From positions 330,001 through 362,000 of the forward strand of contig SHMX01000004.1 of NCBI GenBank assembly GCA_008080745.1: 32,000 bases of DNA, in the 5' to 3' direction. The position numbers were made by a program, and so were the translations under genes. Below the pieces are notes generated by a model. That model was not told the origin of the DNA. It saw only the letters and a program-made list of their open reading frames with translations, and did not search any database. Positions 131 through 6,828 of this stretch are shown here, in pieces. This stretch comes from Candidatus Thorarchaeota archaeon. GTDB taxonomy: Archaea; Asgardarchaeota; Thorarchaeia; Thorarchaeales; Thorarchaeaceae. Positions within the stretch are counted from its first letter, which is position 1. Each line of letters opens with the position of its first letter.

Positions 131-496
131 TTATCGAGATTCGTAGTCTTCTATTGCTTTATGCAATGCCTCTGCTGCAAGATTGCTACAGTGCATCTTT
201 TGTGGTGGTAGCCCATCTAAAGCCTCAGCAACCTGACTACGTGTAATCTCCTTTGCTTCTTCTAAGGTCTTACCGATTGCCATCTGTGTCGTCATAGAGG
301 AGGTTGCAATTGCAGCTACACAACCAAATGTTTCCACCTTGATATCCTTTATCACACCATCAATGACTCGGATATACATTTTCAGCATATCTCCACAAAC
401 GGGATTTCCCACAGTTCCTACGCCGTCAGGGTTTTCCATTTTTCCCATATTTTGGGGGTCTCTAAAATTTTCCATTACCTTTTTGGAGTATGCCAT
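131..496 (-). CDS. iscU: IscU/NifU-N-type Fe-S cluster scaffold protein
   Basis: YSKKVMENFRDPQNMG, GNPVCGD (Cys plus conserved Asp), TFGCVAAIATSS and LPPQKMHCS: all three scaffold Cys and the LPPxK chaperone motif are present. Lies directly downstream of iscS. Confidence 0.96.
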   Translation of the reverse strand: MAYSKKVMENFRDPQNMGKMENPDGVGTVGNPVCGDMLKMYIRVIDGVIKDIKVETFGCVAAIATSSMTTQMAIGKTLEEAKEITRSQVAEALDGLPPQKMHCSNLAAEALHKAIEDYESR

Positions 497-555
497 TGAG
501 AATACCTCTTGTTTTCCCGGTTAATTGGTATCTATAATATTTGCTCTGATGGCAT

Positions 556-1773
556 TTACCAATCATCTTCTGGGAGATCGTGATGATGATCATGCTCATC
601 AGAATCGTCATTTGCAAAATATACTCCTGTTTTGAGTGGGCTAAATTCTCTCAGTCTTTCTACTGCAGGAACTAATGATTCTACTAATTCATCTATTTCT
701 TCTAGAGTGTTATATCTGGAGAATGACACTCGAACTGACCCATGTGATATTTCAGGGGGAAGTCCGATTGCTTTCAATACATGACTACCCTGCAGAGTCT
801 TTGATGAACATGCTGAACCAGTAGAAACAGAGAAACCATCCATATCTAATTGGACTAGTATTGATTCTCCTTCTATTTGTTCTATAACAATACTGAAAAT
901 ATTAGGTAATCTCTTTTCCGGGTGGCCGGTTACTCGATAATCTGTTAGATTTTCTGCTAGCTTTTCCTTTAGATGTTTACTAAGTTTTTCAAAGTGTTCA
1001 ATCTCATTGGCACTCCAGATTTCCACTGCTTTCGCAAAACCCACTGCTCCCGGAATATTCTCAATGCCTGGTCTCAGCCTTCGTTCTTCGTCTCCACCTT
1101 GCGTAATATTGGATATTTTGGTCCCTCTTTTGATATAGAGCACTCCAATCCCTTTAGGACCATGGATTCTGTGTGCGTCGATACTAATCAAATCCACAGG
1201 AATTTTCTTTGTATCCAATGGTATCTTCAAGTAACTTTGGCTTGCATCTGTATGAAATATTATCCCGTTCTTCGATGTGATCTTTGCAATATCTTCAATG
1301 GGTTGAATGGTGCCAATCTCTCCATTTGCATGTTGGATAGATATTAGAAATGTATCCTTTTGGATTAAATCTTTGAGATGGTCAAGGTCAACTCGTCCAG
1401 TTTCATCAACATTGACAGTGTCGATTTCAAAATTAAATTCCTTCAATGAATGAATCGTCTTTAGTACCGATTGTGTTTCTATGGGGCTAGTAATGACATG
1501 TTTTCGAGAACCGCTCTTTGCCTTTACTGACCCTTGGATAGCAATATTGTTTGATTCAGTTACACCTGATGTAAAAACAATTGCTCTAGAATCTGCATTA
1601 AGGGATTCTGCTATTATCTTTCGGGCATTTTCCAGTCCGGTTAATGCCCCAACATCTTGTGCATGACTTAGCTCAAGTCCTGCGGTCCCATAAAACTCCC
1701 GAAAATAAGGGAGCATGGCTTCAATGACTCGTTCGTCAACTCTGCTTGAATTTGCACTATCAAAATATGCCAT
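556..1773 (-). CDS. iscS: IscS/NifS-family cysteine desulfurase homolog (405 aa), PLP site degenerate
   Basis: Class V PLP fold motifs FTSGVTESNN, HANGEIGTIQPI, FHTDASQS, GPKG, RPGIEN and VSTGSACSS. The start is moved from 1845 to the ATG at 1773 (MAYFDS), one base after the upstream regulator's TGA (1777-1775). The PLP Lys is Arg (AGA, 1170-1168) and the EH His is Thr (ACA, 1476-1474). Confidence 0.9.
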   Translation of the reverse strand: MAYFDSANSSRVDERVIEAMLPYFREFYGTAGLELSHAQDVGALTGLENARKIIAESLNADSRAIVFTSGVTESNNIAIQGSVKAKSGSRKHVITSPIETQSVLKTIHSLKEFNFEIDTVNVDETGRVDLDHLKDLIQKDTFLISIQHANGEIGTIQPIEDIAKITSKNGIIFHTDASQSYLKIPLDTKKIPVDLISIDAHRIHGPKGIGVLYIKRGTKISNITQGGDEERRLRPGIENIPGAVGFAKAVEIWSANEIEHFEKLSKHLKEKLAENLTDYRVTGHPEKRLPNIFSIVIEQIEGESILVQLDMDGFSVSTGSACSSKTLQGSHVLKAIGLPPEISHGSVRVSFSRYNTLEEIDELVESLVPAVERLREFSPLKTGVYFANDDSDEHDHHHDLPEDDW

Positions 1774-1774
1774 A

Positions 1775-2227
1775 TCACTTGACACCGTCTTTACATGCCC
1801 TGCAATCCTCTGGAACATGTACACAGTGCTCGCGATGTATGTCACACATTATTCCCTTATCACGGAGAACCTTAATTATTCGATTAATCTCGTGAGTCAT
1901 ATTTTCGTAAATTTTAGACCTTTCTTCTTCGTTTTCTACTTTATCCCAAGTATCAAGAATTTTATCAACTGATTTGTCTATCTCCGGTTGGACCTCATCT
2001 GGAATCTCTATTTGATCTCCTCTGGATCTCTTGGAACGAGGAAGTTTGTATTGACTAACAGCCGCTTCGGTGACCCCCAACATTTTGGCTATGTTCTTTT
2101 GTGGCCTACCCCGTTCAATCATCTTCATAGCTATTTCTCTTCTGATTGCTGGTAGAACATACCATACTTCCAATTCTTGGGGCATTAGCCAGGTTCTCTT
2201 GGGTTTTCTTCTGGATTTTGATGACAA
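1775..2227 (-). CDS. Archaeal HTH transcriptional regulator (COG2522-like) with Cys/His-rich C-terminus
   Basis: MPQELEVWYVLPAIRREIA followed by HTH PQKNIAKMLGVTEAAVSQY; C-terminal CDIHREHCVHVPEDCRAC. TTG start preceded by AGGAGG. First gene of the iscS-iscU unit. Confidence 0.85.
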   Translation of the reverse strand: MSSKSRRKPKRTWLMPQELEVWYVLPAIRREIAMKMIERGRPQKNIAKMLGVTEAAVSQYKLPRSKRSRGDQIEIPDEVQPEIDKSVDKILDTWDKVENEEERSKIYENMTHEINRIIKVLRDKGIMCDIHREHCVHVPEDCRACKDGVK

Positions 2228-2323
2228 TTCGGTTCCTCCTATAACAGCTAGGAACTAATTCACTATTGTTTATATTTCGCACTACGTCATATAAGACTAT
2301 TGCCTTCGACATAGTTAATTTAG

Positions 2324-2341
2324 GATTGCCTTAGGGCAATC
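2324..2341. promoter_or_regulatory. Candidate operator: inverted repeat GATTGCC-ttag-GGCAATC in the divergent regulator/cobB intergenic region
   Basis: Perfect 7-bp arms (2324-2330 and 2335-2341); the half-site ATTGCCTT recurs at 2299-2306. Confidence 0.4.
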
Positions 2342-2392
2342 ATTGCGAATAACTTACGCTTATTAAAGGATACTATTGTTAATCTATCCGCT

Positions 2393-3121
2393 ATGAATGA
2401 TATTCTAAAATTAGCTGCTTCCACAATACAAGGTTCAGAGTATTTAGTTTCACTTACTGGTGCAGGAATCTCAAAAGAATCGAATGTACCAACTTTTCGT
2501 GGTGCTGATGGTCTTTGGAAAAATCATGATGCTATGGAATTGGCTACTCCTCAAGCATTTAGAAAGGATTCCAAACTCGTCTGGGAGTGGTATTCTTGGA
2601 GACAGGGTCTAATTGCTGAATGTTCTCCAAATCCTGGTCATGATACATTAGCAAAGTGGGAACAACAAGGGCTACTAAAATGTCTAATCACTCAAAATGT
2701 AGATGGTCTTCATAGAAGAGCTAAATCTGAAAAAGTTTTAGAGGTACATGGAGATTTATGGGCAATAAAGTGCACCGAATGTTCCTATCATTCTAGACTG
2801 AGCAAACCTGCAGATGGAATCCCCAAATGTCCCGAATGTGGTTCAAAGTTGCGACCTGATGTTGTTTGGTTTGGTGAGTCACTGAATCCTGAAATCATGA
2901 AATCAGTGTATAGAGAATTAGAATTAGCTGATACTATCATAGTCATTGGTACTTCTGCATTGGTTCAACCAGCTGCATCATTTCCATTGCTGGTAAAACA
3001 ACAAGGCGGAAAAATCATTGAACTGAACATCGAGGAAACACCCCTTACTAGATATGTTGATGTGCATATTTCCGGTCCCTCTGGTGTAATGCTTCCAAAA
3101 ATAGATGAGTTACTTGAATAA
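2393..3121 (+). CDS. cobB: NAD-dependent protein deacylase, Sir2/CobB family
   Basis: TGAGISKESNVPTFRG, TQNVDGLH, HGDL, Zn ribbon CxxC...CxxC, RPDVVWFGE, GTSALVQPA and ELN motifs. Confidence 0.96.
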   Translation: MNDILKLAASTIQGSEYLVSLTGAGISKESNVPTFRGADGLWKNHDAMELATPQAFRKDSKLVWEWYSWRQGLIAECSPNPGHDTLAKWEQQGLLKCLITQNVDGLHRRAKSEKVLEVHGDLWAIKCTECSYHSRLSKPADGIPKCPECGSKLRPDVVWFGESLNPEIMKSVYRELELADTIIVIGTSALVQPAASFPLLVKQQGGKIIELNIEETPLTRYVDVHISGPSGVMLPKIDELLE

Positions 3122-3123
3122 TT

Positions 3124-4032
3124 CTATTTTCGAATTGCCCGCAGCTTCCCCCTCGCCCATTCAGCTTCTCTTTGTTTACCTAGTTGTTCGTAGAGAAGGC
3201 TGAGTTCCTGCCAAGCGATGGGTTGCATAGGGTCGATCAGAACAATCCGTTCGTATGCACTTGCAGCATCACGAATATTACCTGCTCTTTGAAGTGCAAT
3301 CGCCATCCCTAAGAGTGCTTCCACTGAGTCAGGATTTAGTTTGACAGCCTCTCGCATGACTCTAGCCGCATCCGTGAAACGTTCCTCCTTAAGGAATGCA
3401 GTTCCAAGCTCTATCCAAATCTGATAGTCTGATGGGTCTATTTTGCTTGCTCGGAAGAGAGCTTTACTTGCATCCTCAAATCGGTTCATTTTGAGCAAGA
3501 CTTTTCCGAGGTTAAACCATCCCTCTTTTGAATCATAATTTATCCTAGTTGCCTGATAGAACGCTTTAGCGGCCTCTGAATCCTCTTTGAGATTCAAGAG
3601 TACATGACCCAGTCTAACCCATGCTCTTTCGTCCTCTTCATTACTCTCAAGGTATTTCTCAAAAGCATATTTTGCTTTTTCCCATTCACTTTGAACAAGA
3701 TATTGTTCGCCCAGAACTAGCCATTCCTCTGGTGTGAGTACCTCTTCTGGCTCCTCAATAGTCGGCTCTACTATATCTTCAGACTCAACAACTTCAGGGA
3801 GCTTTCGGTGATCTTTTACTTCGTACCCTTCTCCTAGTTTTTCAACTGCTTGATGCAATTGCTCGATTGTTTCTCTGGCACTTTCTGGACTGAGATTCTC
3901 TAGGTCCATACCAATGAATGCAGCACTGATGTCTCCTTGTACTTCTGCTAGAATAGACTCGACTTCAGCAGCAAGTCTCAGACCTTCAGTGATGTCCTTA
4001 TCGTCATTTGTTTCGCTATCTTGGCTCTGCAT
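3124..4032 (-). CDS. Tetratricopeptide-repeat protein with acidic N-terminal region
   Basis: About 6 TPR units (e.g. AWVRLGHVLLNLKEDSEAAKAFYQATRINYD, IWIELGTAFLKEERFTDAARVMREAVKLNPD) after about 100 acidic residues. Confidence 0.85.
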   Translation of the reverse strand: MQSQDSETNDDKDITEGLRLAAEVESILAEVQGDISAAFIGMDLENLSPESARETIEQLHQAVEKLGEGYEVKDHRKLPEVVESEDIVEPTIEEPEEVLTPEEWLVLGEQYLVQSEWEKAKYAFEKYLESNEEDERAWVRLGHVLLNLKEDSEAAKAFYQATRINYDSKEGWFNLGKVLLKMNRFEDASKALFRASKIDPSDYQIWIELGTAFLKEERFTDAARVMREAVKLNPDSVEALLGMAIALQRAGNIRDAASAYERIVLIDPMQPIAWQELSLLYEQLGKQREAEWARGKLRAIRK

Positions 4033-4228
4033 TGAAAGATCCCCTTGTAATATATGGATGAACCTAACTCATTATTGGTAAGAATCCGAGATATGTTCTT
4101 TTTGCTTGGTGTTTTTTCATAAGAAAAACTGCCTTTAGAGCCTTACGCCCCTATATTGTACCTAATTTTCCCTGATGTAATAGAATTGGTAAGAGATAAA
4201 TGCTTGAATAAATGCACTCGTTAACAAG

Positions 4229-5233
4229 GTGAGTTCATTGAAAGTCCTTGTGACTGGTGGTACCGGATTTATTGGCCGTAGATTAATTAAGAAATTAGTA
4301 GATGAGGACCATGAGGTATATGCTTTTGTCCGTTCTACGAGTAATCGAAGTGGATTACCAGAAAGTGTGATCTTTAGAGAAGGAGACCTGTTGGATTCAG
4401 AGTCTCTAGAAGAAGCCGTAGAGGGAATGGATGCAGTTATTCATTTGGCTGCTTACTTTGATTTTTATCCAAAGGATGTTGATTTGTTATACAAAATCAA
4501 TGTAGATGGTACAAAGAATCTCATGAATGCCTGTGTTGGCACCTCAGTAGCACGTTTCATCTACTGTTCCACTACGGAAACAATTGGACCTGTTCGCTAT
4601 CCTCCAGCAAGCGAGGATACGGAATTGCGTCCACAATTCGATTATGGGGAGAGTAAGGTATTAGCTGAGAAGGCAGTTAGAGAAATATCCAGCGATACTG
4701 ATCTTGCTCATATTATAATTCGCCCCACAGGAGTATTGGGTGAAGGCGACCTTTATACTGCATATGAACTCATCAAAGCACTGAATGATGGAGAGATACC
4801 GGTACTTCCTGGGGACGGAAACAAACATGTCATGTACACACATGTCGATGATGTGGTTCGTGGCTTTGTTGCTGCCTTGACATCTCAATCTGCACTAAAT
4901 ACCACTATCATTCTCTGCCCTGACGAGCCCATGAAATACAAGGAATTGGTTGAATTCCTGACCAATTATCTGGGAGTAGATGCTCCAAAGAGGCGTATTC
5001 CCACCTCTCTCGCAAAAATTGGTATAGGACTGTTAAGCCCCATAAAAAATCGTGGACGGAATACTTTCCTATGGCATACCCAGACAATTCAGAGTATGGA
5101 TGAGGACCGTTGGTATGAGAATAAACGTGCCAAAAGATTGCTTGGTTGGTCTCCCAAGTTTACAATGCAAGAGGGACTGAAACGAGCAATTGACTGGTAC
5201 TATGAACATGACTATCTCGAACGGAGACAATAA
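4229..5233 (+). CDS. Extended SDR, NAD-dependent epimerase/dehydratase family
   Basis: VLVTGGTGFIG Rossmann motif, VIHLAA, NVDGT, YGESK (YxxxK), IIIRP. GTG start. Confidence 0.9.
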   Translation: MSSLKVLVTGGTGFIGRRLIKKLVDEDHEVYAFVRSTSNRSGLPESVIFREGDLLDSESLEEAVEGMDAVIHLAAYFDFYPKDVDLLYKINVDGTKNLMNACVGTSVARFIYCSTTETIGPVRYPPASEDTELRPQFDYGESKVLAEKAVREISSDTDLAHIIIRPTGVLGEGDLYTAYELIKALNDGEIPVLPGDGNKHVMYTHVDDVVRGFVAALTSQSALNTTIILCPDEPMKYKELVEFLTNYLGVDAPKRRIPTSLAKIGIGLLSPIKNRGRNTFLWHTQTIQSMDEDRWYENKRAKRLLGWSPKFTMQEGLKRAIDWYYEHDYLERRQ

Positions 5234-5235
5234 TC

Positions 5236-6828
5236 ATGGACCCAATCATTTCAATATTTCTAATCATATTGCCAATTATTCTTGCTTTCGTAATGCTTGT
5301 CTTTCTGAAAAAGGCTGCTGACACTACTGGCGTTGTTGTCTGGCTTGTAACATTGATTATTTCCATTATTGCTTTTCAAACAGATCCTGGCATCGCATTA
5401 TTAGCCAGTGTTGCGGGAATTGTGCGTTCATTTCCGATATCGCTGATGGTCGCAACCTCAATCCTGATGATTACTTGGATGCAAGAAACTGGTGCATTAC
5501 AACGTCTTATTGTGTTCTTCAAGACTCTAGGTGGTGGAAGTCGTCCTATGCAAATCATGCTGATTAGTCTGGGACTCGGACTCTTTCTTGTGGGAATTGG
5601 AGCTACCCCAGTTTCCATGTTACCCCCTGTCATGTTAGCTCTCGGATTCAATCCATTGGTCGCTGTTGCATTACCCTCTATTGGATATGATCCACTTACA
5701 ACTTTTGCACTTCTTGGAGTTCCTGCTGTTGTTTTTACTGATGTGTATAATGCCTCCGCAGGTACCAGTCTGGCACTCTGGGAAACTGGAAGTGTTTTTG
5801 CACTATTTATGCCTGTTATCACGACAGGTATCGCTCTATCTATGCTATGGATTGCTGGCGGTAAGGAAATGCTGAAGGACAAAGAGGGTGTTCTTCTTGC
5901 TGTTATCTGTGGAGTTACTGCTGGTGGTATTGCCATCATAATGAATCTCCAGTTTGTTAATCTGACAACGTTGACCAATGTCTTTGCTGGCGCAGCAGTA
6001 ATGGGTATATTATTCCTCTATACACGGTTGAGGAAACGCTCCTTTATTGATAGGAGTATTCTTGATGAGAAGGATCTTGAGATAGAACAAAACATGGATC
6101 TCAAACGAGCTAGTATTCCATGGGTTATTCTAGTCATTTTATGTCTCGCCACGAACTTGATTATGCCTATCCGAGATTTTCTCTTTACCGACTTAGCTCT
6201 GCCTATTATCATTCCAGGAACAGCTCCTATTGCTACACGCTTCTTCTGGCAGGCATATACTTTGATGTTGATTTCTACATTCGCAGCAATGCCTTTCTTT
6301 AAGACTGACAAGGAAGTACTTGGTCGCACTTTCAATAAATTCATGGCACGGGCACCCCGTCCTGTACTAGCCGCTGCAATCTTCTTCGCAATGGCAGAAG
6401 TGATGGTTAGAAGTGGTTACGTATGGGTTGATGGTCTCTGGACCTTGCTTGAACCAACTAACAACATGATCTATGTCTTAGCAACCGCAACATCTAGTAC
6501 TATTGGAATCGCATATCCACTCACAGCTGCATTTCTTGGACTGCTTGGCGGATTCATCTCGGGGTCTGAAACATCGGCAATTGCTATGTTCACTGATTAT
6601 CATTATACAACTAGCACATTGATTGGTGCAAATCCAGTGGTAGTATCAGCTTCTAATGGTATAGGTGGAGGTCTCGCAAGTGTTCTCAGTCCCGCAAAGA
6701 TTCAGAACGCTGCTGCTGTAATCGATAAGATCGGCATTGAAGGAGAAGTAATCAGATATGGTGCTGTTGTTGCATTAATCATGACAGCTGCAGTTGCCAT
6801 CATGACAATGATCTGGGCATTTGTTTAG
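5236..6828 (+). CDS. lctP: L-lactate permease (LctP/GlcA) family transporter
   Basis: Multi-pass hydrophobic protein of 530 aa with family-like segments LGGFISGSETSAIAMF and SNGIGGGLASVLSPAKIQNAAA. Starts 2 nt after the SDR stop. Confidence 0.8.
   Translation: MDPIISIFLIILPIILAFVMLVFLKKAADTTGVVVWLVTLIISIIAFQTDPGIALLASVAGIVRSFPISLMVATSILMITWMQETGALQRLIVFFKTLGGGSRPMQIMLISLGLGLFLVGIGATPVSMLPPVMLALGFNPLVAVALPSIGYDPLTTFALLGVPAVVFTDVYNASAGTSLALWETGSVFALFMPVITTGIALSMLWIAGGKEMLKDKEGVLLAVICGVTAGGIAIIMNLQFVNLTTLTNVFAGAAVMGILFLYTRLRKRSFIDRSILDEKDLEIEQNMDLKRASIPWVILVILCLATNLIMPIRDFLFTDLALPIIIPGTAPIATRFFWQAYTLMLISTFAAMPFFKTDKEVLGRTFNKFMARAPRPVLAAAIFFAMAEVMVRSGYVWVDGLWTLLEPTNNMIYVLATATSSTIGIAYPLTAAFLGLLGGFISGSETSAIAMFTDYHYTTSTLIGANPVVVSASNGIGGGLASVLSPAKIQNAAAVIDKIGIEGEVIRYGAVVALIMTAAVAIMTMIWAFV

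Follow-up and report, generated by a model that had tools for sequence, protein, structure and literature searches.

What can an IscS homologue contribute to Fe-S cluster assembly when the lysine that should form the Schiff base with PLP is missing from it? This question is raised by a gene in the window analysed here, the whole stretch of 32,000 nucleotides (C4:330001-362000 of a 3.16-Mb, 98%-complete MAG from marine sediment), in which a regulator gene, the IscS-like gene and a gene for the scaffold protein IscU follow one another as an operon flanked by unrelated genes (Table 1). A preliminary description had taken the product for a probable pseudo-desulfurase paired with IscU, and further for an independent, possibly PLP-free version of a sulfide-using IscS-IscU complex with relevance to Fe-S biogenesis in archaea related to the ancestors of eukaryotes.

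Table 1. Positions in the window of the genes, codons and motifs discussed
Feature	Position	Strand	Remarks
IscU scaffold	131..496	(-)	121 aa, stop codon included; Pfam NifU_N, E 2.4e-43
IscS-like (MisS-like) protein without PLP lysine	556..1773	(-)	405 aa, stop codon included
Acidic His-rich C-terminal tail	559..612	(-)	Residues 388-405: NDDSDEHDHHHDLPEDDW; predicted disordered
Cys322 codon TGT	808..810	(-)	Loop TGSACSSKT, probably mobile; invariant in clade
Arg202 codon AGA	1168..1170	(-)	Schiff-base lysine position, motif IDAHRIHGPKG
Asp199 codon GAC	1177..1179	(-)	Phosphate-binding Ser position (E. coli Ser203)
Thr100 codon ACA	1474..1476	(-)	PLP-stacking histidine position, motif PIETQSV
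GTAGLELSH motif	1663..1689	(-)	In place of GNPSS-xH, with two-residue insertion
Putative HTH regulator	1775..2227	(-)	150 aa, first gene of operon; C-terminal C-x2-H-x3-C-x6-C-x2-C

The IscS-like protein starts with MAYFD at an ATG at 1773, one base past the TGA of the upstream gene, and has the class V aminotransferase fold (Pfam Aminotran_5, PF00266, E 5.8e-74). The nearest NCBIfam models are NifS and IscS, yet it scores under every equivalog cut-off (411 versus 530.75 for NifS, 331 versus 643 for IscS). Its top PDB match is Archaeoglobus fulgidus IscS2 (4eb5/4r5f, E 1e-94 to 4e-95), and its AF2 model (pLDDT 86) gives TM values of 0.88-0.95 to NFS1, A. fulgidus IscS, E. coli IscS and NifS in Foldseek, the closest structural matches being those to NFS1, over about 400 columns. 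Confidence is low in the GTAGLE region, the DEERRLRPG loop, the Cys loop and the tail, and because of this low confidence the loop that carries Cys322 is probably mobile. Among the features of a type I cysteine desulfurase that were tested, the fold and the loop cysteine are present, while the Schiff-base lysine and the stacking His, phosphate Ser, trans Thr and Asn contacts to PLP are missing. The individual residues had been read correctly from the outset: the open reading frame, the codon (1170-1168) and the PDB alignment all place Arg202 at the position of E. coli Lys206, exactly on Asp199 of A. fulgidus IscS and on the engineered lysine of 4r5f in the printed alignment; Thr100 (1476-1474) stands at the position of E. 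coli His104; the motifs DNAATT and GNPSS are altered, to FDSANSS and YGTAGLELSH; and the translation retains both Cys322 (GSACSS) and DASQ, the latter at residues 176-179.

A search of 5.8 billion proteins returned about 60 orthologues that share 62-80% identity with the target, beyond which the matches fall abruptly to about 50%. These orthologues are labelled Thor-, Loki-, Hermod- or Prometh-archaeota (Asgard MAGs), and the lysine is absent from all of them, which bears out the earlier argument, drawn from several changed PLP contacts, against a single sequencing error. The closest orthologue, from another genome of the same genus (80% identity), likewise has Arg and Thr at the two positions. 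Among the species-representative genomes of the same class, 27 genomes from 8 genera have an orthologue, with the same spread of residues at the lysine position. Across the clade this position holds His (63%), Leu (20%), Arg (13%) or Val (3%), and that of the stacking histidine holds T (.45), V (.42) or H (.10), so that neither of the two replacements, which the preliminary description had proposed to check for fixation, is fixed. As the residue at the lysine position varies in this way, "Arg instead of Asp" has no special meaning, and the proposal of an Arg version distinct from the Asp version falls; judged from the orthologues, the position is unconstrained and offers no alternative to Asp. 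The same variation led to the rejection of Arg as a functional stand-in for Lys or Asp.

The erosion extends well beyond these two residues. In the canonical set used for comparison, i.e., the 135 lysine-bearing sequences among the 150 nearest 50%-identity cluster representatives, Lys and His occupy the two columns in 100%, and the stacking His, phosphate Ser, trans Thr and Asn contacts are each conserved in 76-100% of lysine-bearing relatives. In the clade, the phosphate-binding Ser position is Asp in 97% (versus Ser in 76% of lysine-bearing relatives), the Asn of GNPSS (99% in those relatives) is replaced by Thr30 in 100%, Gly40 by Asp in 100%, the Asn at E. coli position 155 (97%) by Gly (Gly151 in the target), the trans Thr at position 237 (99%) by Val or Ile (Ile237 in the target), and Asn282 by Thr. 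Six or seven cofactor or substrate contacts, with roles assigned after the E. coli IscS structure, are changed throughout the clade, more than in A. fulgidus IscS. Retained are Thr72, Asp176, which we take to be the pyridine-nitrogen ligand, Gln/His179, His201, Arg348, presumably the substrate arginine, and the loop TGSACSSKT. At the same time, Thr30, Gly32 and Glu34 of GTAGLELSH are invariant or nearly so, and Glu34, Asp40, Glu225, Asp228, Glu229 and Arg232 form a set of new invariant charged residues, which suggests that they build a network of salt bridges or that the old pocket has acquired a new ligand site; the retention of Asp176, His201, Thr72 and Arg348 would leave room for a ligand there. 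With the stacking His, the Ser, GNPSS and the trans position lost and a carboxylate where the phosphate would sit, we infer that no cofactor is bound in the old pocket, and the Asp at the phosphate-binding position together with the lost trans Thr would argue against even non-covalent binding of PMP. The earlier proposal of a possibly PLP-free protein is plausible on these pocket losses. As a side observation, in an alignment of the 150 nearest representatives with ten further sequences, Lys or Arg occurs three residues after the loop cysteine in 19 of 23 lysine-less and in 26 of 137 lysine-bearing members; the counts are not phylogenetically independent, and the lysine-less sequences come from several lineages.

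Such losses have not been accompanied by decay. Compared with the same-genus orthologue, pN is 0.12 and pS 0.80 (pN/pS about 0.15), and an alignment of 49 sequences from the wider subfamily has 43 invariant columns; judged from these comparisons, the protein is under purifying selection. The letters themselves were checked in Logan contigs from the only two DNA runs that contain the stretch, both of one study and possibly from the source sample. Between 100 and 2300 these contigs, with word depths of 44 and 121, show zero differences and agree on AGA at 1168-1170 and ACA at 1474-1476, the two codons for which a look at the reads had been advised.

The lysine loss can be placed in the wider family, in which 137 of the 150 nearest 50%-identity cluster representatives have the lysine and 13 do not. 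In a quick ML tree of 77 rows, the Asgard clade, a bacterial clade and a few archaeal sequences, all with the two-residue insertion in the GTAGLELSH region that marks the wider subfamily, form a group with 98% SH-aLRT. This group includes a Promethearchaeota protein with Leu at the lysine position, another protein with Thr, and two lysine-bearing members (Asgardarchaeia and Aenigmarchaeota), while in its bacterial clade (Thermacetogeniaceae, Chloroflexota, Halanaerobiales) the lysine is replaced by Thr and the stacking His by Asp. The A. fulgidus-type Asp clade lies across a 98% SH-aLRT split from the target group, and contains an Odinarchaeum protein as well as the second IscS copy of the target genome. 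The tree requires six changes of the lysine state, and an AU test with all lysine-less rows held together gave p 0.24, by which a single clade is not rejected. On the strength of the ML tree and the opposite erosion patterns, a loss in the target lineage separate from that of the A. fulgidus Asp-type is favoured; the independence claimed at first is supported to that extent, with a single origin not rejected.

An addition seen in the clade is the C-terminal tail. In most members it reads acidic-HHHD-[LIV]P-x-[DE][DE]W and comes after EFSPL, then YFA and an acidic run; the terminal Trp is found in most clade members, not in the nearest orthologue, and the tail is lost or altered in one genus. 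HHHD is common to the clade and its Promethearchaeota sister P0126, whereas bacterial, Asp-type and canonical relatives end near SPL, without the tail. The final [DE][DE]W resembles the C-terminal motif of eukaryotic CIA, a reading that was dropped. It ends 4 ORFs genome-wide (0.56 expected), which besides the IscS-like protein are an HTH-like protein, a small protein of unknown function and a ferredoxin-type protein, and these are too few and too unrelated for a genome-wide recognition tag.

As had been proposed, the protein has a canonical IscU as its neighbour: the next gene (131-496) encodes all cluster ligands (Cys34, Asp36, Cys59, His102, Cys103), and these are invariant. In this IscU the Hsp70-recognition motif LPPVK of bacterial IscU is represented by a conserved LPPQK or LPPHK, and the N-terminal Tyr3 is invariant. 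With an IscS-like and an IscU-like gene and neither chaperones, ferredoxin nor A-type carrier, the operon has the composition that defines MIS, the minimal Fe-S system made up of MisS and MisU only. IscU lies within 1.5 kb downstream of the IscS-like gene in most loci, in some of them with an additional gene between the two, and is absent from that range in 5 of 27. Complex prediction for the IscS-like protein and IscU gave an ipSAE of 0.44 (best control 0.01), with at least 65% contact agreement between runs and a partner pLDDT of at least 88; of the solved complexes, 58 of 80 reached the mark, as did 2 of 110 mismatched pairs, and a pass of up to 0.60 counts as weak. The prediction hints at pairing with IscU, and since like complexes have been solved, the pass may reflect likeness only.

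The first gene of the operon lies directly upstream of the IscS-like gene in all 27 genomes. Translation may begin at TTG (2227) or at an ATG 14 codons further in, and a Pfam search gave no family and only weak HTH matches. Among 120 listed of its 438 homologues, all named ones are labelled Asgard (Thor-, Loki-, Prometh-archaeota). In the motif C128-x2-H131-x3-C135-x6-C142-x2-C145, Cys128, His131, Cys142 and Cys145 are conserved in 100% and Cys135 in 84%, and the protein is a candidate Fe-S or metal-sensing regulator. No inverted repeat that might serve as an operator was found in the 165-bp region upstream of it. Relatives share the gene order lactate permease, epimerase, TPR, SIR2, regulator (window 131-6828). 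Only some of the genera have the IscS-like/IscU pair, and this patchy presence implies an insertion or deletion just behind the regulator gene. In relatives without the pair, a 165-aa version of the regulator persists at the same SIR2/enoyl-CoA-hydratase locus; for this reason the regulator is not exclusive to the IscS-IscU operon.

The rest of the genome bears on where sulfur for this IscU could come from. A second Fe-S cassette (C1:237373-240300) comprises TusA, TusA, a DsrE2-like protein (120 aa, YVCEAS), an IscS of the A. fulgidus type with Asp at the lysine position (SSND), and a 263-aa IscU whose C-terminal half is thioredoxin-reductase-like. SmsC and SmsB are also encoded. The genome search that had been recommended for a canonical SufS or IscS yielded one SufS-family protein with both Lys and Cys, with no SufE or SufU seen adjoining its gene, and no lysine-bearing type I IscS. 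A further SufS-like type II protein (C2:383445-384668) has lost its Schiff-base lysine (SGNIGLLGP for SxHK) and kept its cysteine (RSGLICAHP), and is by its motifs a second kind of pseudo-desulfurase in the same genome. The A. fulgidus-type signature is found in the other copy of this genome and, among 40 paralogues sampled from the class, in 30. In some relatives of the class a lysine-bearing type I IscS (AGHKLYAPKG) forms part of a reading frame some 750 aa long, suggestive of a fusion protein. Neither type I IscS homologue of the target genome has the catalytic lysine, and therefore its two IscU scaffolds must obtain sulfur other than by the PLP chemistry of their own partners. Sulfide use, as first suggested, is one option for the target complex; a purely sulfide-using reading is not imposed, because the genome has a lysine-bearing SufS and an Asp-type IscS with TusA/DsrE.

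The explanation that we consider probable, as a whole, is that the protein is a PLP-independent type I desulfurase fold, likely devoid of PLP and PMP and without desulfurase activity, in which cysteine no longer yields sulfur through PLP chemistry and which has been retained to partner the adjoining IscU. By analogy with the (IscS-IscU)2 complex of A. fulgidus, Cys322 on its loop would reach the IscU assembly site, where it could supply the fourth ligand to the nascent [2Fe-2S] cluster, or accept and relay sulfur. The sulfur would come from outside the IscS-like protein, either as free sulfide of the sulfidic marine sediment or as persulfide made elsewhere, for which the SufS-family enzyme or TusA/DsrE of the genome are candidate sources. 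A. fulgidus IscS, with Asp199, has been shown to lack desulfurase activity and to ligate the IscU cluster through its Cys (PMC8918507; PMC7585200; PDB 4eb5/4hvk), and is a valid precedent, as had been argued; sulfide has also been shown to feed IscU-dependent assembly in E. coli in vivo without IscS (PMC13015791). The presence of a second IscS/IscU pair in the genome bears on whether the target protein pairs with its own IscU, and counts against this explanation.

The alternative that survives best differs in the origin of the sulfur. Here the dead protein would receive a persulfide on Cys322 from the SufS-family enzyme or from TusA/DsrE and pass it to IscU, with cysteine or carrier-bound sulfur, not free sulfide, as the ultimate source. 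The genome has a SufS-family protein with Lys and Cys, the Asp-type IscS is directly preceded by TusA, TusA and DsrE2, TusA or TusA-DsrE2 is also part of the operon in sister lineages of the target, and the conserved substrate-side Arg348 and Cys loop would suit such a relay. Yet all 27 genomes lack TusA and DsrE within 1.5 kb of the target-type gene, the only carriers in the target genome belong to the other cassette, and no SufE or SufU is seen beside the SufS-like gene, and we regard this relay as a possibility of rather modest likelihood.

A role in iron handling appears doubtful. According to this idea, which is compatible with the main explanation, Fe(II) would be bound by the remodelled pocket (Glu34, Asp40, Asp199, Glu225, Asp228 and Glu229 beside His201 and His204) together with the acidic HHHD tail, and passed on to IscU in a frataxin- or IscX-like manner. 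Clade-specific invariant acidic residues do lie at or near former cofactor contacts, and the acidic-HHHD tail is conserved in the clade and its sister. In IscS and NFS1, the latter being the closest structural match over some 400 columns, a C-terminal segment lies against IscU (3LVL, 5WKP). However, the tail is predicted to be disordered, is lost or altered in one genus and lacks the terminal Trp in the nearest orthologue, and acidic His-rich tails are common and unspecific. The idea may be extended, no less speculatively, to a dead desulfurase turned iron-handling subunit, in which pocket and tail would capture Fe(II) for IscU, Cys322 would hold the cluster, and the regulator (Cys3-His/Cys4) would sense cluster status and autoregulate the operon like IscR or SufR.

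That the protein is still an enzyme, using non-covalent PLP/PMP or another lysine for desulfuration or a related reaction, is very improbable. The residues that such chemistry might employ have been kept (Asp176, Thr72, His201, Arg348), Lys325, three residues after Cys322, is invariant in the clade, and A. fulgidus IscS unexpectedly holds PMP (PMC8918507). On the other hand, the Schiff-base Lys is gone along with the stacking His, phosphate Ser, trans Thr and two Asn, His, Leu, Arg and Val are all accepted at the Lys position, and A. fulgidus IscS is inactive even with its lysine restored (PMC8918507). Finally, a sequencing or assembly error or a decaying pseudogene can be practically dismissed: AGA is one base away from AAA, but some 60 orthologues lack the lysine, several independent positions are altered, the frame is intact with low pN/pS and many invariant motifs, and the contigs of both runs are identical at depths of 44 and 121.

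Among the versions compared here, the target clade shows the deepest erosion; it is without the carrier genes that accompany other lysine-less IscS proteins, and in their stead has an acidic His-rich tail and a putative dedicated regulator. It offers a clean test case for what a dead IscS adds to cluster assembly (ligand, relay or iron delivery), as well as for the regulation of Fe-S biogenesis in anaerobic archaea. No link to eukaryotic Fe-S biogenesis, as it had been suggested, was found, and the locus has no direct bearing on eukaryotic ISC, which is of alphaproteobacterial origin.

Lysine-less IscS has already been described in archaea, in A. fulgidus and as IscS1 of M. acetivorans; a description of the target clade was not found in the searchable literature (MisS/MisU, Asgard Fe-S biogenesis), a scope outside which many subscription papers lie. 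The closest known system is A. fulgidus IscS2-IscU (PDB 4eb5, 4eb7, 4hvk; D199K 4r5f), with which the target shares the type I fold (TM 0.94-0.95) with Lys replaced, the loop Cys with Lys at Cys+3, the MAYFD start, and an adjoining IscU with all cluster ligands; with its lysine lost, its loop cysteine kept and a place beside IscU, it resembles the inactive paralogues of the A. fulgidus type. Nevertheless, the two have lost different parts of the pocket. In A. fulgidus IscS the GNPSS motif, the stacking His and the phosphate Ser are intact and the trans Thr is represented by Ser, and all four are lost in the target, whereas Gln183 of the A. fulgidus protein has become Ala and its substrate Arg354 Gln, where the target keeps Gln179 and Arg348. 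In place of the A. fulgidus signature (SSND, Gln183 to Ala, Arg354 to Gln, GNPSS and His kept), the target shows DAHR, GTAGLE and Thr100, and it adds the two-residue insertion, the acidic HHHD tail and the upstream regulator. The bacterial Thr/Asp-type (Chloroflexota, Thermacetogeniaceae, Halanaerobiales), accompanied by TusA/DsrE carriers like the IscS1 cluster of M. acetivorans, belongs to the same insertion-bearing subfamily, has an adjacent IscU and keeps the Cys loop and the Arg. It departs from the target in the fixed Thr and Asp at its Lys and His positions, in its retained phosphate Ser and in the absence of a tail; its neighbours are TusA-DsrE2 and an IscU fusion with FeS_assembly_P, whereas the target clade has no carrier within 1.5 kb. 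Sulfur carriers accompany both the sister lineages, with TusA or TusA-DsrE2 in the operon, and the Asp-type. With canonical MisS, IscS, NifS and NFS1 the target has in common the fold, the dimer-type architecture, the mobile Cys loop and the pairing with a U-type scaffold, and it differs from them in the loss of the catalytic Lys and most PLP contacts. The target is a distinct new lineage of a known oddity and not a new kind of system; what is new is an Asgard lineage with deeper pocket erosion, an apparently unconstrained Lys position, an HHHD tail, a carrier-free operon and a candidate Cys/His HTH regulator, and the coexistence of this lysine-less copy with an Asp-type cassette in one genome.
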